This document shows, piece after piece, positions 1,123 through 30,358 of a stretch of DNA of 32,000 bases. The notes under the pieces are model-generated. The model was given only the letters and a program-made list of their open reading frames with translations, did no database searches and was not told the DNA's origin. Position numbers and translations under genes: made by a program. The number at the start of each line of letters is the position of its first letter. Positions within the stretch are counted from its first letter, which is position 1. The DNA comes from Candidatus Saccharimonadota bacterium (GTDB lineage Bacteria > Bacteroidota > Bacteroidia > Cytophagales > Amoebophilaceae), in the NCBI RefSeq assembly GCF_936981045.1, contig NZ_OW441264.1, forward strand, positions 570,001 to 602,000, read 5' to 3'.

Positions 1123-1446
1123 GTCTAGAGTAAAGAAATGGTTGGACCACTTAAAATTAAGCATATCTATTGCTTCTGATTGCTCGCAATACAGTAGCTG
1201 ACTAACTTGATTCTTCATTGTTTACCCATTCCCTTCTCATCCCAAGGTACGTTCAGTTTTCCCGAATACGGCGGTCCGACAGTCTTCTTCATAAACCTTG
1301 CACAACTCTCTCAGGATAGTTAATCATTCCACTACCAATGTACAACATCCCCATTGTATAGAGTTTGCTATTGGGATAGCTTTGCCACCCACACCCACGG
1401 CCTTTTCTTCTATGGGTTAAGTATCTGCGAAATCGGTTATTAATAA
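1123..1446 (-). mobile_element. Group II intron 3' fragment (end of RT/maturase ORF, domain V, 3' tail), decayed
   Basis: Reverse complement of about 10400-10720, still joined to the same IS6 exon. The 3' strand of domain V carries substitutions (GTACCTTGG instead of GTACGGTGG). Confidence 0.85.
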
Positions 1447-2435
1447 CCTGAGTTCGGGATTAGCTTGTTAAAAAATAGCTTTAAAAAGCTCCTTTATGTT
1501 TTAAATTTGGAGATAAAAAAATACTAACCAGATTACCCAAAGGAGCTAGTTATAAATGTAGAAAAGTTAGTTGAAATATATTATGCTGTTAATGAATTTC
1601 TCATAAAGTTTATGCCGTATATGGAAAAACAACTGTTAACCAACTCTAAAAGAAAACCCACTAGAACTTGTTCATTAACTTTGAGTGAAATAATGACTGT
1701 TCTTATTGCCTTTCATGTGATTGGTTTTAGAAATTTTAAGTCTTATTATATTCATTTACAGCAATTTCATTCTAGTAAATTTGGAAAGTTAGTAAGCTAG
1801 AATAGATTTATAGAACTGATCCAAAGAACGTTAGTTCCCTTGTACTGTTTTACACAAAGTCTTTCTAAAACAAAAACAGGTTGTTATTTTATGGATGCAA
1901 CAGCCATCAAGGTTTGCCATATCAAAAGAGCCTATACGCACAGGGTTTTTAAATCGATTGCTACTAAAGGTAAAACCAGCATCGGTTGGTTTTTTGGATT
2001 AAAGTTGCACTTGATAGTCAATGATTTAGGAGAAATCATGAATTTTCGACTGACCACAGGTAAAACTAATGATAGGCTTCCTGTAGAAAATTTATGTAAA
2101 CACTTCATGGGTAAAATGTTTGCCGATAAAGGTTACATAAGCAAAGATTTATTTAAAAAACTGATCGAGAAAGGCGTGGAACTCATTACCCAGATCAGAA
2201 AAAATATGAAAAATGCTTTTATGCCACTCTGGGATAAACTGATGCTTAGAAAACGATCTATAATTGAAACTATTATAGATCATCTCAAAAATATTAGCCA
2301 GATAGAACATTCCAGGCATAGAAGCATACCTAATTTTCTAGTCAATTTGATAACTGGAATTACAGCTTATGCACTAAAAGAGAAAAAACCTTCTATAACT
2401 AATATATATATGACTGGTTCACAATACGTCTAATC
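1447..2435 (+). mobile_element. IS982-family element, copy 1, right end cut off by an IS256 insertion
   Basis: Left TIR (AA)CCTGAGTTCGGGATTAG. Collinear with the intact copy at 13511-14512 up to ..CGTCTAATC, where an IS256 terminus begins. Confidence 0.9.
1552..2435 (+). pseudogene. IS982-family transposase, inactivated
   Basis: Start codon is ATA where copy 2 has ATG (1552-1554). In-frame TAG at 1798-1800 where copy 2 reads TAC. The ORF track shows it split into 1612-1800 and 1840-2433. Confidence 0.85.
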
Positions 2436-3778
2436 GGAAGTGTTCTATAAACTGTGTCAAGGCGATAAAAAGTTATAAATTAATTAAATAAACATTAAAG
2501 GTTTTAGACATGGAAGAAAATAAGGACAATTCCTATGTTGGTTTAGTAGATTACAAATTTCTGGAGGAAAATATTTTGTGCTCTATCCGTTTAGGTAAGC
2601 CTTTAACAGGAAAAGGTGGTGCTTTAACGCCTCTGATAAAAAAGCTTCTAGAGGCAAGTCTAGAAGGTGAAATGGCACACCATTTATCTAGTGATTCAAC
2701 AGAAAATAATAGAAGAAATGGAAAAAGCTCTAAAACTTTACGTACAAGTTCTGGTTCCTTTGATCTGCTAACTCCTAGGGATAGGACAGGTAGTTTCGAT
2801 CCACAAATAGTTAAAAAGCGTCAAACAAGCCTACATCCTGAGCTGGAAAGCAAGATCTTAAGCATGTTTTCTAGTGGTATGAGCTATAAATCTATAGCCG
2901 TTTATGTTGAAGAGATCTATGATCATAAAGTATCAGCTGCTGAAATATCATCTATTACAGATAGCTTGTTACCGATAATAAATGAATGGCGTAACCGCCC
3001 TCTTCAATCAGTTTATCCGATAGTTTTCATGGATGGGATATTTTTTAAGGTAAAAGAAGATGGCAGATGTGTAAGCAAATGCATGTATACCTTATTAGGC
3101 ATAGATCAAGAGGGTAAAAAAGAAGTATTGGGATTTTATTTGTCTGAAAGTGAGGGGGCTAACTTCTGGTTGGGTGTACTTAACGAGCTTAAGGAAAGAG
3201 GTGTAGAAGATATCCTTATTGCCTGTGTTGATGGCCTAAAAAGCTTTCCTTCAGCCATAAATAGCGTTTTCCCTAATGCACAAGTGCAGGTCTGTGTAGT
3301 ACATCAGATACGAAACTCACTCAAGTATGTAGCTATCAAAGACGTAAAACGTTTTTTAACTGATTTAAAGCAAATATATCAAGCTTCAAGTAAGGAAGTT
3401 GCTGAGCATTATCTATTGGAATTAGAAGAAAAATGGGGGGGGAAGTATCCAATGGTTACCAAATCTTGGCAAAATAATTGGGAACATTTGTCTGGTTATT
3501 TTAAGTATTCAGATCCTGTCAGAAGGCTAATTTATACCACCAATCCTATAGAAAGCTTGCATAGGCAGATTAGGAAGTTTACCAAGACAAAACGTTTACC
3601 AGTATAAATGCTTTGTATAAATTAGTATATTGTGCCATAAAGAAGATCGAGGATAAATGGACTATTCCGCTGCGAAACTGGGCGCTGACTATATCTCAGA
3701 TAGACATCTTTTTTCCCGGTAGATTAAAAGAGACGTTGAGATGAACAGGAGATGTGAAACAGTTTATAAAACACTTCC
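2436..3778 (+). mobile_element. IS256-family element, type 1
   Basis: Imperfect TIRs GGAAGTGTTCTATAAACTGTGTCA and (reverse complement) GGAAGTGTTTTATAAACTGTTTCA. A second copy lies at 22405-23751 on the minus strand. Confidence 0.85.
2510..3744 (+). pseudogene. IS256-family (mutator-type) transposase with a 3' frameshift
   Basis: The 365-aa ORF has typical IS256 motifs (IACVDGLKSF, VQVCVVHQIRN, YTTNPIESLHRQIRK). A 4-nt deletion relative to the other copy (ACAAAACGTTT versus ACAAAAGGAGCGTTT) near 3592 truncates the C-terminus. Confidence 0.8.
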
Positions 3779-3818
3779 GAAAAGCCTTTACTAACGGAAA
3801 TGTAGACGCGACAGAACC
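3779..3818 (+). mobile_element. IS6-family right-end remnant (~40 bp)
   Basis: AAAGCCTTTACTAACGGAAATGTAGACGCGACAGAACC matches the last 40 bp of the IS6 copies ending at 10898 and at 945/7926 (reverse complement). Confidence 0.75.
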
Positions 3819-3912
3819 ACTCTTCCTAGTCCTCGGAACCTCTTGTATATAGAATATTTAGATTTTTAAACATTATGCTATAAACATAAGTAATAGATGA
3901 ACGCTCTAGAAC

Positions 3913-4677
3913 TTATAACGTAGACTTTCTTGAGTATTCTTGAAAGCAAGGAAACGCACTACCATAGGTTTTTTCTAGTAAGCCAGCTGTAAAAACCTCT
4001 TTTGTATCACCAGAAGCTATAAGTGTATGGTTGAGCAACACCAGCCAATCAAAATAGCTATGTACGGATCCCAAGTCATGGTGTACGACCACAATCGTTT
4101 TCCCTGCTGCCACCATGTTTTTTAAAAGTGTAATAACCATTTTTTCTGTAGTAACATCTATACCTGTAAACGGTTCGTCCATAAAATACAATTCTGCATC
4201 TTGTGCCAATGCTCTCGCTAAAAATACGCGCTGCTGTTGTCCTCCAGATAGAGCTCCAATTTGTCGCTTGGCAAGATGGGCCATGCCCAACTTTTCTAAG
4301 CAATGCATAGCTACTGCTTTATCTCTTTTGTTAGGCCATTGAAAAAATCCCAATCTATTATACCTACCCAAAAGCGCAATGTCAAACACAGAAGCAGGAA
4401 AGTCCCAATCTACTGACTCTTTTTGGGGGACATAACTAATACGTCTTCTTACCTTGTGGATAGGTTCCCCAAATAATTTTATTTCACCCGTTTGACAAGG
4501 AATAAGCCCCATAGCAGCTTTCAGTAGGGTAGATTTACCTGCTCCATTGGGACCTATTATTCCAATAATTTTATGTGGTGGCAAACCAAAACTAACTTTT
4601 TCCAGCACAATTTTGCCCTTTGTATAGCCAACGGTTAAGTCTTTTATGCTTACGCTATACGCTTCTACCTGCATCAT
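3913..4677 (-). CDS. Metal (Zn/Mn/Fe) ABC transporter ATP-binding protein, ZnuC/TroB/MntB type
   Basis: Walker A GPNGAGKST, signature LSGGQQQR, Walker B LYFMDEPFTGID. Starts 2 nt after the stop of the upstream binding-protein gene. Confidence 0.9.
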   Translation of the reverse strand: MMQVEAYSVSIKDLTVGYTKGKIVLEKVSFGLPPHKIIGIIGPNGAGKSTLLKAAMGLIPCQTGEIKLFGEPIHKVRRRISYVPQKESVDWDFPASVFDIALLGRYNRLGFFQWPNKRDKAVAMHCLEKLGMAHLAKRQIGALSGGQQQRVFLARALAQDAELYFMDEPFTGIDVTTEKMVITLLKNMVAAGKTIVVVHHDLGSVHSYFDWLVLLNHTLIASGDTKEVFTAGLLEKTYGSAFPCFQEYSRKSTL

Positions 4678-4679
4678 GC

Positions 4680-5600
4680 TTATTTCAGTGCATTAACAAT
4701 CGTTGTGGCATTGGAACGGACCATGCCACAATAGGTTCCTTCTATAGTATCAGATGCACCTAGTGCATCAGAATAGAGGCAGCCTCCTACCACTACCTTA
4801 TGCCCATAATGGGCACAACCCTCTACTACAGCCTGCATGGATTTATCTGAAACAGAAGTTTCAAAAAAAACTGCTTTAATATTTCGTTCTATAACAAGCT
4901 CTACAATATTTTTAATGTTTTTTAACCCAGATTCAGGTATAGTAGAAACGCCTTGTAAACCAACTACTTCTATATTATACGCCTTGCTAAGGCAACCAAA
5001 AGCATCATGTGCTATGATCAGTACCCGCTGTTTTGCTCGAATAGATTGAATTTGGGTAGTAACTGATTGATGTAATTGCTTTAGTGCTTCTATATAAGCC
5101 AACGTATTATTTTGATAGTAAGCCGCTGATACGGGTCTTGCTTCTTGTAGCTTTTGACCGATAAAACTGACTACCTGTTTCCATAGTCTTACATCAAACC
5201 AGATATGGGGGTCTACCCCAATGGGACCGTATAGCAGCTCTGTTTTATTGAGGGCCTCACTAACCGCATAAGCTTTCCTTTCTTTAGACATTCTTTGCAA
5301 TAGATCTGTCATTTTATCCTCTAAATCAAGACCATTGTAAAATATTATATGCGCGCGCCTAAGCTGTTGCACATCTTTTTGGGTAGTTTGATATATATGA
5401 GGATCTATACCAGGTCCCATCAAATTCACTACTTGGGCATCCTCCTTCACAATGTTTTTAATAGCATCTCTCAAGATGTCTGTCGTGGTTAAAATACAAG
5501 AGGATAGGATCAAACAAGAAAATAGACAAAAAGCTTTATACGAATTTAATAATATGCATCTAGTAAAATTTTCTATCATACAGAATATTATGTTTAACAC
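4680..5600 (-). CDS. Metal ABC transporter substrate-binding lipoprotein (cluster A-I, TroA/ZnuA-like), paralog 2
   Basis: Motifs GPGIDPHIY, VDPHIWFD, IIAHDAFG, LYSDALG. Lipobox-like LFSC/LSSC. The likely true start is the ATG at 5579. Confidence 0.85.
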   Translation of the reverse strand: MLNIIFCMIENFTRCILLNSYKAFCLFSCLILSSCILTTTDILRDAIKNIVKEDAQVVNLMGPGIDPHIYQTTQKDVQQLRRAHIIFYNGLDLEDKMTDLLQRMSKERKAYAVSEALNKTELLYGPIGVDPHIWFDVRLWKQVVSFIGQKLQEARPVSAAYYQNNTLAYIEALKQLHQSVTTQIQSIRAKQRVLIIAHDAFGCLSKAYNIEVVGLQGVSTIPESGLKNIKNIVELVIERNIKAVFFETSVSDKSMQAVVEGCAHYGHKVVVGGCLYSDALGASDTIEGTYCGMVRSNATTIVNALK

Positions 5601-5794: not shown

Positions 5795-6724
5795 TTATGA
5801 TAGTGCATTGACAATCGTTTTAGCATTGGCACTGACCATGCCACAATAGGTTACTTCTAGCGTATTAGGTGCACCCAGTGCATCAGAATAGAGGTAGCCC
5901 CCTACCCTTACTTTATGGCTGTAACGGGCACAACCTTCTACTACAGCCCGCATGGACTTATCTGAAACAGAAGTTTCAAAAAAAACTGCTTTAATATTTC
6001 GTTCTATAATAAGCTTTACAATGCGCCTAATATCTTTTAACCCGCACTCAGATGCAGTAGAAATACCCTGTAAACCAACTACTTCTATATCATAAGCCTT
6101 TCCAAAGTAACCAAAAGCATCATGTGCAGTAATCAATACCCGTTGTTTCTTTGGAATGGATTGGATTTGGGCAACAACCGATTGATGTAATTGCTCTAGT
6201 ACTTCCATATAAGTCAACGTATTATTTTGATAATAAGCCGCTGATTCAGGCTTTGCTGCTTGAAGTTTTTGACTGATAAAACCAATCACCTGTTTCCATA
6301 GCTTTACATCAAACCAGATATGGGGGTCTACTCCGATAGAACCGTCGCATAGTAGCTGTGTTTTATTGAGGGCATCACTAGCCGCATACACCTTCCTTGC
6401 TTTGGCCATTTCTTTCAATAGATTATTCATTTTGCCTTCCAAATCAAGGCCATTATAAAAGATTATATGCGCATGCATAAGCTGCTGTACATCTTTTTGA
6501 GTAGTTTGATAGGTATGAGGGTCTATACCAGGTCCCATTAGGCTGACTACACGCGCATCCTCTTTTACAATGTTTTCAACAGCGTCTCTGAGCATACCCG
6601 TGGTGGTTAAAATGGTAAATGGTTCGTCTGGAGTATGATCAACACACGAAAATAGGCTTAACCCAAAAAACAAATAAACCATCTTATACCTATTGGACGA
6701 TAGGTACCTAATAAAAGCTATCAT
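5795..6724 (-). CDS. Metal ABC transporter substrate-binding lipoprotein (TroA/ZnuA-like), paralog 1
   Basis: Same motif set as 4680-5600 and collinear with it along most of its length. Signal/lipobox GLSLFSC. Confidence 0.9.
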   Translation of the reverse strand: MIAFIRYLSSNRYKMVYLFFGLSLFSCVDHTPDEPFTILTTTGMLRDAVENIVKEDARVVSLMGPGIDPHTYQTTQKDVQQLMHAHIIFYNGLDLEGKMNNLLKEMAKARKVYAASDALNKTQLLCDGSIGVDPHIWFDVKLWKQVIGFISQKLQAAKPESAAYYQNNTLTYMEVLEQLHQSVVAQIQSIPKKQRVLITAHDAFGYFGKAYDIEVVGLQGISTASECGLKDIRRIVKLIIERNIKAVFFETSVSDKSMRAVVEGCARYSHKVRVGGYLYSDALGAPNTLEVTYCGMVSANAKTIVNALS

Positions 6725-7521: not shown

Positions 7522-7588
7522 TTTTAAATTTAATAATCAAACCAAAATATAATCTCTGTGCGCCAAGCGAAATGCTTATAAACTAATA

Positions 7589-7828
7589 ACGTGAGTTCGG
7601 GATTTATTTGAGTGATTTACAACAATTTAATATCAATTATTTAGTTAATATTTGCACCTATTTAACAAGTTTTTATACCTAATTTTATAAATATAATATA
7701 TATAATAAACTGATTACCAGAATTATTTGTTATTTAACTATTTATTTAACTGTCTATAAAACAAATTTTATAAATTTTCATTGATATTGATTATCAAATG
7801 AAAAAATAATCTAATCCCGAACTCAGGT
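7589..7828 (+). mobile_element. MITE (type 1, IS982-like termini), copy 1
   Basis: Termini ACGTGAGTTCGGGATT...AATCCCGAACTCAGGT. AT-rich non-coding interior. Flanked by TAATA on both sides. Confidence 0.85.
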
Positions 7829-7925
7829 TAATAGTTGAAAGAGCTATACAAGAAGTATGACCTACTACACTTGTTATCGAGTCTTGGGCTATAATTGGTA
7901 ACAACTATAGTTAAGCGTAGACAGA

Positions 7926-8090
7926 GGTTTTGTCGCTTCTATATTTTCGTTAGTAAAGGCTTTTCTTTTAAGTGAAGTTTTGGATATATATTGGGTATTA
8001 TTCGGCCATTAGCATAACAAAATTCTCAAAAATAGAAAGATGATTTTTAGCTCCGATTACTTGTCCTTTTTGAATCATAGGAATGTTTTC
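7926..8090 (-). mobile_element. IS6-family right-end fragment, cut by insertion of another IS6 copy
   Basis: Reverse complement of 10734-10898. It ends exactly where the left TIR of the next IS6 copy starts (8091). Confidence 0.85.
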
Positions 8091-9242
8091 GGTTTTGTCG
8101 CGTTTATTCTAAAAAATCATTATTTTAGTATCTGCAGTTAAAAAAGTAGTTATTATGTTTAATATTTCGCCCAAATTATTACCTTATTTTAAGGGCTATT
8201 GTTCTTCAGCAGAAGTCATCCTGTTATTTGTCTAGATGAAGTATTGTTTTTCCTTGAGCTATAGAGATTTGGAAGATATGATGCGTATGAGAGGCGCAAG
8301 AGTTGATCATTCTACGCTACAAAGATGGGTTATTAAGTTTGTTCCTCTTATAGATGAAGCAGTAAGCAAAAGAAAACGACCAGTTGGTGGTAGTTGGAGA
8401 ATGGATGAAACCTATGTTAAACTAAACGGGAAGTGGATCTATTTATATAGAGCAGTAGATCGTTATGGTGATACAGTTAACTTTTTTTTATCTGAGCATA
8501 GAGACAAGTCTGCAGCTTTTTCTTTTTTTCGTAAGGCGATCACAGAAAATAATATTCCTAAGAAAGTAGTAATTGACAAAAGCGGTAGTAATAAAGCTGC
8601 CCTTGATACGATCAATACAGAACTTGATCAAGATTATACCATTCAAATATTTCAAAACAAATACTTGAATAATAGAGTTGAACAAGATCATAGGTTTATC
8701 AAAAAACGGCTAAAACCTATGCTTAGTTTTAAGTGTTTTAAGTCTGCAGCCATTGCACGCCGGCACAGGTGTGCAACAAATGGGGTGTAAGTCCCCTGAC
8801 TCTAATTTGTCTATTTCGGGAGTCTAGCAGGAGGTTGGATTTGTGGGGTGATTCACAGGTTTAAGTTACCTTTAAATGCATCTGCAAAATAGCGGGCTGC
8901 AACAAAAGTGAACCTAAATTAGCCTCGTTAAGCCGTTTAAGCGCATTTGCCGACTATCTAGTGGCTACAGGAAGGCTGATAGTAGGATGGAAAAAATAGA
9001 CCATGACCATCATACAAGTGCCGGGGTGTTAGGGGTTGCACGCTATGAATGTTTCACATCGTAGTCCGGGAGATCTGATATGAATCCAGTAGGCCACTGG
9101 AAACTTTATTGTATAAGTAAAGCGAAATCAATAAGGGTGATATCAGAAGTCCGCGGGGTCTATAATACCGTTCGTATTGATTGGGAAACCACTCAAGAGG
9201 AAAGGGACCCTACTTCAGTTAACGAGTTTAAAAGAGTTGAGA

Positions 9243-10554
9243 ATGTCTGATTGCCCTAAAGCTATGAACGGAACATTAAAAGTTCAGCAACTCCAAAGAA
9301 CTCTATATCTCAAATCCAAGCAATGTAAGGAAGTCAGATTTTATAGTATATATGATAAAATTTATCTAAAAGATGTACTTTGGGAAGCTTGGCGTCAAGT
9401 CAAAGCAAATCAAGGTTCAGCAGGGATTGATGGTAAAAGCATAAGTGATATAATAGATCAAGGTGAGGCAAAGATTATCAATAAATTGCAGCAGCAACTA
9501 CGCGCAAAGCTATACAAATTTACCTCAAGCAGGTTGGTAGAAATACCCAAAGCTAAAGGTGGAACAAGGCCACTAGAGGTAATGACCGTAGAAGATCTCA
9601 TAGTGCTCACAGCAATGAAAATAGTCATTGAACCGATCTTCGAAGCTGATTTTCATGAATGTTCATACGGCTATAGACCGAAACGAGGAGCCAAACAAGC
9701 GAGTTTAGTGATCCGAGAAGATCTATACCAGCAGGCATGGGGCGTAGTTGAGATTGATTTTCAATCATACTTTACTAGCATCTCACACGAAAAGTTATTA
9801 AAACTTATTAGTAAAAGGATAGCAGATGGCAGTATGTTGAAGCTAATTAAACAAACCCTAACAACGTCAATAGTAAAACAAGGTAAAATTACATGCAAGA
9901 AAGTTGGAGTACCGCAAGGATCACCAATATCACCGTTGTATAGTAATCTACCTAAATGTTATAGACCAAGTGTGGCACTCAAGGGGGTATCCAGAAAAGC
10001 TAAGCGCAACCTTGCATAGGTATTGTGATGATGCAATTTTGGTATGTCGTAAGAGTGCTAGCTTAGCGCTGGAGAAATTCACAGAATTAGTAAAGAGGTT
10101 ATCGCTCATTATTAACCACCAAAAGACACGAATAACGAAACTGAAAGAAGGCTTTAACTTCATAGGTTTTTACTTTGTAAAAAGAAAGAGTTCAACAAGT
10201 GGCAGAAATAGCATTTATGTATTTCCAACGAAACAATCCCAACAAAGCATCTGTAACAGACTAAAATACCTGACTTGTAGAAGAGCACTAATCAAACCTC
10301 AAACATTCATCGAGCAAATAAAACCAGTAGTGTTAGGATGGGTTAACTATTTTAAACATACGAATGCGAGTGAAGCTTTTGTTAGATTGCAGGACTTTAT
10401 TAATAACCGATTTCGCAGATACTTAACCCATAGAAGAAAAGGCCGTGGGTGTGGGTGGCAAAGCTATCCCAATAGCAAACTCTATACAATGGGGATGTTG
10501 TACATTGGTAGTGGAATGATTAAGTATCCTGAGAGAGTTGTGCAAAGTTTATGA
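9243..10554 (+). pseudogene. Group II intron reverse transcriptase/maturase, frameshifted, no endonuclease domain evident
   Basis: RT blocks: QGSAGIDG, YRPKRGAKQA, VEIDFQSYFTSISH, GVPQGSPISPLYSNL. After a frame change near 9947-9952: YLNVIDQ..LHRYCDDAILVC. X/maturase region: GWVNYFKH. There are no HNH motifs before the stop. Confidence 0.8.
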
Positions 10555-10568
10555 AGAAGACTGTCGGA

Positions 10569-10601
10569 CCGCCGTATTCGGGAAAACTGAACGTACGGTG
10601 G
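10569..10601 (+). ncRNA. Group II intron domain V
   Basis: CCGCCGTAT-TCGG-GAAAA-CTGA-AC-GTACGGTGG folds as a two-part helix with an AC bulge and a CGC triad position, the canonical D5 architecture. Confidence 0.8.
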
Positions 10602-11245
10602 GATGAGAAGGGAATGGGTAAACAATGAAGAATCAAGTTAGTCAGCTACTGTATTGCGAGCAATCAGAAGCAATAGATATGCTTAATTTTAAGTGGTCCA
10701 ACCATTTCTTTACTCTAGACCATTGTAGAGATAGAAAACATTCCTATGATTCAAAAAGGACAAGTAATCGGAGCTAAAAATCATCTTTCTACTTTTGAGA
10801 ATTTTGTTATGCTAATGGCCGAATAATAACCAATATATATCCAAAACTTCACTTAAAAGAAAAGACGTTACTAACGAAAATATAGACGCGACAGAACCCG
10901 GATACAAACTAGAAAACAATACGTCTAAATATTATTTATAATTAATATTATATTATCTCATAATCAGAATAAAAAATAAAAATATTAAATCTTTACTTTA
11001 ATATTTACAGCTATATATACCCCATTTTTAATCCCTTTAATCGAGTATGAAGCTGAATAAAATATTGTAAAAAAAATATATAAACTCATTATCATATATA
11101 TATGTGTAATTGTAAATCTCTTACTTTAACATGTAGGGTTTAAAAAAGGTGGTCGAAACTACTATTGTATAGTATCATCTTTTTTCTTAAAATTGAGGTT
11201 AAATACCTAAAGATTAGGTTGCTTTACATTTAGAAGGTTGAAACT

Positions 11246-29839: not shown

Positions 29840-30070
29840 ACGTGAGTTCGGGATTATATTATTTTTTCATTTGATAATCAATATCAATGAAAATTTATAA
29901 AATTTGCTTTATAGACAGTTAAATAGGTAGTTGAATAACAAATAATTCTGGTAATCAGTTTATTATATTTATAAAATTAGATATAAAAACTTGTTAAATA
30001 GGTGTAAATATTAACTAAATAATTGATATTAAATTGTTGTAAATCAGTCAAATAAATCCCGAACTGACGT
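29840..30070 (-). mobile_element. MITE (type 1), copy 5, inverted orientation, without matching flanks
   Basis: Termini are present, the interior is slightly shorter. The flanks differ: TAATA on the left, ATATT on the right. Confidence 0.8.
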
Positions 30071-30290
30071 ATATTAATAACCGATTTCGCAGATACTTAA
30101 CCCATAGAAGAAAAGGCCTTGGTTGTGGGTGGAAAAGCTATCCCAATAGCAAACTCTATACAATGGGGATGTTGTACATTGGTAGTGGAATGATTAAGTA
30201 TCCTGAGAAAGTTGTGCAAGGTTTATGAAGAAGACTGTCGGACCGCCGTATTCGGGAAAACTGAACGTACGGTGGGATGAGAAGGGAATG
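30071..30290 (+). mobile_element. Group II intron 3' fragment (RT C-terminus plus domain V)
   Basis: Collinear with about 10401-10616 of the full intron. Contains the domain V sequence. Cut ~15 nt after domain V by IS256 type 2. Confidence 0.85.
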
Positions 30291-30358
30291 GTCTTTTGTT
30301 TTAAGTGTGTAAATATTTTTTAGGATTTATCTTTACCTAAATCATAACACTTAAAACA

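Follow-up and report, generated by a model that had tools for sequence, protein, structure and literature searches.

Introns nested in insertion sequences (ISs) are a known habit, and the parallel closest to the locus described here is the group II intron RmInt1 of Sinorhizobium meliloti, which lacks an endonuclease and has its natural homing site inside ISRm2011-2; many copies of that IS are occupied, and intron-less alleles coexist with them (PMC3035460, PMC4238363, PMC1802570). Complete splicing of RmInt1 in vivo is about 0.07% (PMC3035460), and its authors hold that the intron limits the spread of its host IS rather than sparing it (PMC3035460, PMC4238363). Here we report a fresh example in an already published and curated genome, that of a spider's Cardinium symbiont. 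In a stretch of 32,000 nucleotides (the window: positions 570,001 to 602,000 of contig NZ_OW441264.1) a group II intron of 1,964 nt, 5'-GCACG...CUCUAG-3', occupies positions 8755-10718 of the forward strand, within the transposase gene of an ISCca2-like element of the IS6 family. It resembles RmInt1 in having no endonuclease and a site inside an IS, and also in its distribution: the same site is occupied in two IS copies of the window, and an intron-less allele (protein P0026) is found in the same genome. RmInt1 differs in being a IIB3/class D intron with canonical termini and a host that is not an IS6 element, whereas here the host is IS6 (ISCca2), the RNA is IIC-like, the ends are GCACG...AG, and no second exon-binding site (EBS2) emerged from the scan described below. 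The best explanation, which we consider very probable, is that the intron retrohomed into an ISCca2-type site, that this site would be its cognate homing site, and that the copy in the window is now a fossil.

The source genome was published with its mobile elements curated by hand; mobile DNA makes up 29.6% of it, the IS6 element ISCca2 is present in 109 copies, 43 of them intact, the miniature inverted-repeat transposable element (MITE) MITECca01 in 169 copies, that is, as non-autonomous elements mobilised in trans, and group II introns are recorded in the curated annotation without discussion (PMC9769881). The window agrees with this picture, being a patchwork of IS256-, IS5-, IS982- and IS6-type fragments and MITE-like repeats. 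The intron-bearing element, which belongs to a divergent 'subfamily B' of ISCca2-like sequences, lies at 8091-10898 (+) and is delimited by a pair of inverted repeats, the left one GGTTTTGTCGCG at 8091-8102 and the right one CGCGACAGAACC at 10887-10898 (reverse complement GGTTCTGTCGCG). Without the intron it measures 844 bp, and over 782 nt it shares 80% identity with the ISCca2 of Cardinium cBtQ1; a length of about 0.8 kb and terminal inverted repeats beginning with GG are what is expected of the IS6 family.

The limits of the intron follow from the host gene. Exon 1 of the transposase (8155-8754, +), recognized by translation, alignment and the NCBIfam IS6 model NF033587, comprises codons 1-200 and by itself scores 205 bits (profile positions 20-188 of 202; cut-off 125 bits). 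Exon 2 (10719-10826, +; TIVEIENIPMIQKGQ...MAE*) has an in-frame TAG (10716-10718) directly upstream, and the insertion point falls exactly between codon 200, ATT (8752-8754), and codon 201, ACC (10719-10721). Conceptual splicing extends the match to the whole profile (positions 1-202, 224 bits) and gives a DDE transposase of IS6 type, 78% identical to the ISCca2 transposase. The joined exons align with seven full-length homologues, all of 235 amino acids (aa), with zero gaps (...F.SA.I|TI.GIEN... at the junction), and the insert is therefore exactly 8755-10718. Excision at 8754|8755 and 10718|10719 yields GCC ATT|ACC ATT, the ligated exons reading GCAGCCATT|ACCATTG; this fits the intron-less ISCca2 of Cardinium cBtQ1, which has GCT GCC ATT|ACT ATA at the site, and also P0026 (...KAAAI|TIAGIEN...), an intron-less member of the intron-bearing IS6 subfamily that was read at the protein level only.

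The same limits are obtained from other copies of the intron, which were collected by a protein-guided scan of one genome per species, together with contig look-ups. Besides other Cardinium strains, relatives were found in Candidatus Glomeribacter, Mycoavidus, Hamiltonella defensa and several metagenome bins. The left limit of similarity is exactly GCACGCCG... and the right limit exactly ...UACUCUAG in 11 further copies, most of which occupy different sites; one of these copies has ...UACCCUAG as its right end. GCACG forms the 5' end of each of the 10 copies in which that end is readable, and the 3' end is ...UAG in 12 of 12.

Pairing between intron and exons provides the second line of evidence. 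In an unbiased scan that set each intron column against each exon offset, the highest score belongs to the pairing of an exon-binding site, EBS1 (AGUGGCU, 8960-8966, +), with the last 7 nt of exon 1, the intron-binding site IBS1 (AGCCAUU, 8748-8754, +); 93% of the cells are paired, versus a background of about 70-76%, and in the copy of the window the match is 7/7. Covariation was assessed over 9-11 copies. With nine of them, 81% of the cells are paired versus 60.6 +/- 4.3 after shuffling, a value of 81% being reached in 0 of 500 shuffles; both-sided (compensatory) changes occur in six of the seven pairs, and controls in which the segments were slid drop to 17-54%. Exon positions -1 to -4 pair with EBS1 in every one of 11 copies. 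A candidate EBS3, U9029 (+), pairs with A10719, the first base of exon 2, and this pair too is formed in 11 of 11 copies, in three different types (U-A in 8, A-U in 2, C-G in 1). A second EBS3 candidate, at 9053, was dropped because it is unpaired in one relative (L090), and the complementarity scan gave no further exon-complementary site above background that could represent EBS2-IBS2. On these comparisons both splice sites are fixed by covariation as well as by homology.

The RNA can be followed through its domains. The Rfam model RF02003 matches 8779-8907 with 50.5 bits (E = 1.7e-8), and domain I extends over 8760-9068 (+), with basal helices at 8761-8763/9066-9068 and 8768-8778/9050-9060. 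RNAalifold, applied to the 5' 500 nt of five copies (domains I-III), returns 145 pairs, 43 of which show compensatory changes. It also pairs 8758-8760 (intron positions 4-6, CGC) with 9153-9155, an invariant GCG between domains II and III, which may be spurious. Domain V lies at 10569-10601 (+; RF00029, E = 4e-4), exactly where the initial annotation had placed it, and contains a CGC triad, a bulge of 2 nt and a loop of 5 nt; its 13 pairs are all invariant and 100% formed in 11 copies. Domain VI, as folded, is a long hairpin (10605-10715, +) whose distal part is a lineage-specific extension of differing length; its 13-bp basal helix forms throughout (100%) in 11 copies, 3 of the pairs being compensatory, and A10712 is bulged 7 nt from the intron's 3' end, as expected of a branch point. 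RF00029 misplaces domain VI in the window because of a distal insertion of about 75 nt, and the long hairpin that ends at 10715 was preferred to its placement at 10605-10646. Relatives with a short domain VI pass the model and end at the element end (L003, 42.5 bits; L002, 40.2 bits).

Domain IV holds an open reading frame (ORF) for a reverse transcriptase (RT)/maturase (9243-10554, +) with the motif YCDD. As it stands the ORF is frameshifted by a 2-nt deletion after 9945, so that TIGR04416 matches in two frames (positions 1-193 and 193-352); after repair the intron-encoded protein (IEP) has 437 aa and reaches 345.8 bits (cut-off 300 bits). A domain search of the IEP found RVT_1 and GIIM only, with no HNH or other endonuclease domain. 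The repaired protein matches two others of the same genome, P0132 and P0262, the latter also of 437 aa, and altogether the genome contains one intact IEP, of 437 aa, besides 26 IEP fragments. Compared with solved structures, the IEP is closest to the IIC RTs (174, 151 and 146 bits), followed by IIB (99 bits) and IIA (LtrA, 82 bits), classes D, E and F having no solved structure. The presence of a group II intron with an RT/maturase inside an IS6 transposase gene, which the initial annotation had proposed, is thus borne out by NF033587, TIGR04416, RF02003 and domain V alike.

The second lesion is in the host gene, in which a premature in-frame TAG (8233-8235) replaces codon 27, a Tyr in every homologue aligned. 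With its RT frameshifted and the host transposase interrupted, the copy at 8755-10718 is a fossil, and the earlier idea that splicing keeps the IS functional is inapplicable to it. It is conceivable that the intact 437-aa IEP assists splicing or mobility in trans.

Further copies of the intron bear on how it spread. On the reverse strand, 945-1446 is 98% identical to 10397-10898 and preserves the 3' junction, as had been pointed out before: the right end of an IS6 element with exon 2 lies at 945-1124 and the 3' 322 nt of the intron at 1125-1446, where an ISCca4-type element cuts it at 1447. The 8 mismatches to the first copy divide into 4/322 in the intron and 4/180 in the IS6 part. A third fragment of the intron (30072-30291, +), which corresponds to 10398-10617, has no IS6 exon and is flanked by other repeats. 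Immediately to the left of the intron-bearing element, abutting its left inverted repeat, lies an inverted 3' fragment of another IS6 copy (7926-8090, -). No 8-bp target duplication surrounds 8091-10898, the flanks ATGTTTTC and CGGATACA being unlike. In the genome two IS6 transposase subfamilies can be distinguished: 25 intact proteins, which carry SASITISG at the site, share 93-99.6% identity among themselves, and their identity to the intron-bearing copy (SAAITI) is only 86-88%.

We infer retrohoming, and splicing competence in the past, from the established mechanism of group II introns, given an insertion that is precise, in the sense strand, without target duplication and specified by EBS-IBS pairing. 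According to this reading, a mobile, endonuclease-less IIC-like intron would have entered the transposase gene of an ISCca2-type IS6 element by reverse splicing into its sense strand, with the target chosen by the 7-bp EBS1-IBS1 pairing (8960-8966/8748-8754) and the 1-bp EBS3-IBS3 pairing (U9029/A10719). Since EBS1 is matched to this IS6 subfamily, the IS6 site is read as the probable cognate homing site of this intron variant. A sister intron in the Cardinium of Nabis, 87% identical, has AGUCAGA as its EBS1 and is found at two different loci sharing UCUGAUU; each of the two EBS1 sequences, AGUGGCU in the window and AGUCAGA in Nabis, fits its own site 7/7. The two occupied IS6 copies of the window would then derive mainly from repeated retrohoming, with the intact 437-aa maturase available in trans, and in part the chimeric IS may also have been copied whole.

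Several results weigh against this reading or parts of it. The intron does not conform to the general terminal consensus of group II introns, GUGYG...AY, and covariance models, by which the initial annotation would have had the intron judged, gave a divided answer, RF02003 exceeding its Rfam gathering score (50.5 versus 49 bits) and RF00029 falling short of it in the window (34.1 versus 40 bits). As to the mode of spread, the data do not tell homing from hitch-hiking: mismatch density is alike in the intron and IS6 parts of the second copy, and in the 3' part of IS6 copies 1 and 2 differ at 2/165 positions, and either of them differs from a third fragment at 6/165, as copying of a chimeric unit would also predict.

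The alternative to which these last observations belong is that the intron entered one IS6 element once and that the chimeric IS6::intron of 2.8 kb was then copied, by IS6 transposition with a transposase provided in trans, or else through segmental duplication or recombination, which would have produced the second identical junction. Besides the close similarity of the two IS6 3' parts and the like divergence of the intron and IS6 parts, it draws support from the membership of the intron-bearing copies in a divergent subfamily and from the fact that the genome does mobilise non-autonomous elements in trans, as its 169 MITEs demonstrate (PMC9769881). The initial annotation had taken the shared junction itself to mean that the IS carried the intron along as a passenger; this does not follow, because retrohoming yields the same junction, and site-specific retrohoming fits at least as well. 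An EBS1 that is re-tuned with respect to the sister intron and matches 7/7 is the signature of a cognate homing site, the first copy lacks a target duplication, and its transposase is dead. We lean towards homing, which we regard as somewhat the more probable of the two, and give hitch-hiking a substantial chance, if one short of even.

A different doubt concerns the 5' end. One could suppose that GUGUG at 8769 is the ancestral GUGYG and that the intron gained a 5' extension of 14 nt and came to splice upstream, as do C.te.I1 and some fungal rRNA introns, whose splice sites precede GUGYG by 8 nt (C.te.I1) or by 1-33 nt (PMC4424553). Those introns do share with ours a 5' splice site that is not directly at GUGYG, and the Cardinium copies have a GUGUG at 8769. 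However, they keep the downstream GUGYG and have lost other motifs, whereas here it is the terminal pentamer that has changed and the branch-site A and EBS1 are intact. In the wider clade the sequence at that place is GCGUG, GCGUA or GCGUU, and GUGUG (8769-8773) forms one strand of the domain I helix 8768-8778/9050-9060, where it pairs with 9055-9059 and its substitutions are matched by changes on the partner strand. In addition, GCACGCC aligns with the class C 5' consensus GUNYGCC (PMC4028801) with U2->C as the sole difference, and GCACG is invariant in the 10 copies with a readable 5' end. A shifted splice site thus appears quite improbable. The 14 nt in question (8755-8768), which are unique in the window, were also considered as a separate small element or a carried-over exon, and this was rejected, as they are conserved intron sequence. 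Hardly tenable, finally, is the anatomy of the initial annotation, an intron from 8767 or 8769 to 10720 with GUGUG...AC ends and an EBS1 at 9018-9024 (GUGCCGG) facing 8760-8766 (CCGGCAC): this complementarity does exist, but both segments are intronic, lying inside the conserved element common to unrelated insertion sites, the real pair being 8960-8966/8748-8754; excision would leave 14 extra nt and break the frame, with 10716-10718 an in-frame TAG; the gapless 235-aa alignment and the 11 other copies both give 8755-10718; and the intron-less alleles, by which the junction was to be judged, agree with excision of GCACG...UAG and not with that of GUGUG...AC.

With the ends so placed, the question of class can be addressed. 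Group II introns have the consensus 5'-GUGYG...AY-3' (PMC4424553), which in class C is extended to GUNYGCCNRGCAUGG / CCUACYCGAU (PMC4028801). The extended termini of the present intron, GCACGCCGGYACAGG / UUUACUCUAG, resemble those of class C and differ at U2->C and at the last base, U->G. Its likeness to class C (the introns of O. iheyensis, B.h.I1, GsI-IIC and the E.r. intron) further includes an RT closest to those of IIC, no endonuclease domain, the CGC triad in domain V, no detected EBS2, and a candidate EBS3-IBS3 pairing for the 3' exon. Class C introns insert after a terminator or attC stem-loop and have a short IBS1 of 3-4 nt. Here there is no such upstream stem-loop, the EBS1-IBS1 pairing reaches 7 bp and the targets are sequence-specific coding sites, while position 2 of the intron is C and its last base is G; the domain V loop has 5 nt, a trait reported for IIE and IIF (PMC3753933). 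No consistent hairpin was found upstream of the insertion sites of 11 copies, whose 5' exons fold at only -0.9 to -4.2 kcal/mol. Given the likenesses to class C and three misfits (the missing hairpin, the 7-bp EBS1-IBS1 pairing and the 5-nt loop of domain V), we call the intron IIC-like.

The conserved termini, which depart from GUGYG...AY, are the most unusual feature of this IIC-like lineage; in the literature, classification databases aside, we found no paper describing them or the nesting in IS6. If they are undescribed, the joint change at intron position 2 and at the last base may be a sign that the intron ends are in direct contact. A practical point is that rules which set boundaries by GUGYG...AY misplace the ends of introns in this lineage, as does the Rfam domain V-VI model. 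The start of a more distant relative, on a contig of Mesobacillus harenae (L017, 1-40; RF02003, 105 bits), appears to be UUUU|GCGUGCC, as read from a single copy, and C at position 2 may thus not be confined to the Cardinium-type clade.

The lineage is large and widespread, with hundreds of IEPs of about 438 aa, 64-72% identical, from endosymbionts and metagenomes. The targets in the wider clade are codons for catalytic motifs in genes of mobile elements (L080, 2014-3975; L092, 128-2038; L090, 1019-2904; L081, 2013-3975): YADD (tat gcn gac g|a) in the RTs of other group II introns, CVDG (tgt gta gat g|g) in an IS256-family transposase, and RFAD|D in an island gene. The common EBS1 of this clade is CGUCGCA. 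In residing inside other group II RT genes (L002, L080, L092) the clade recalls the nested introns of Methanosarcina acetivorans and the bacterial twintrons (PMC4424553), from which the present case differs in that the host is a DNA transposon gene, and the clade in that its common target is the YADD-coding sequence. One locus, L002 (1593-6027 of the gammaproteobacterial metagenome-assembled genome contig JBDTIZ010000046.1), displays triple nesting: an outer group II intron (RF01999...RF00029) interrupts the gene of an IS6-family transposase (aa 12-89 and 87-234), and the RT of that intron is in turn split in its YADD codons by a GCACG-type intron (3015-4919). It is tempting to picture a widespread lineage with GCACG...UAG termini as a specialised 'parasite of parasites' that habitually inserts where other mobile elements encode catalytic motifs, but this generalization from the sites listed is tentative and we consider it rather doubtful. 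The combination of conserved non-canonical termini with landing in such codons is nonetheless worth following.

In a genome of which 30% is mobile DNA, the IS6 locus offers a clean natural case of one selfish element using another as a landing pad. Because EBS1 was re-tuned between two Cardinium lineages, it also shows a group II intron shifting its homing site. Restraint of the host IS by the intron, for which there is published precedent, could bear on why only some ISCca2 subfamilies stay active.

Some other features of the window can be mentioned. Copies 2 and 3 of the intron are cut off at almost the same intron position, only a few nt apart (10393-10398, TTTATTAATAAC; window 1440-1450 and 30060-30075), and the elements that truncate them end in ...AATCCCGAACT(C/G)A(G/C)G, which is the inverted repeat of ISCca4/MITECca01; this points to a possible insertion hot spot inside the maturase region of the intron. 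At 7838-7925 (+) a group II intron distinct from this one is represented by a 5' fragment (positions 1-91 of RF02005, 49.8 bits), which is preceded by a MITECca01-like repeat (7585-7846) and cut on the right, at 7926, by the inverted IS6 fragment. Finally, two tandem paralogues for a periplasmic metal-binding (ZnuA/MntC-like) protein, with 80-85% DNA identity, are encoded at 4680-5600 and 5795-6724 (-), adjoining an ABC ATPase and an MntR-like regulator.

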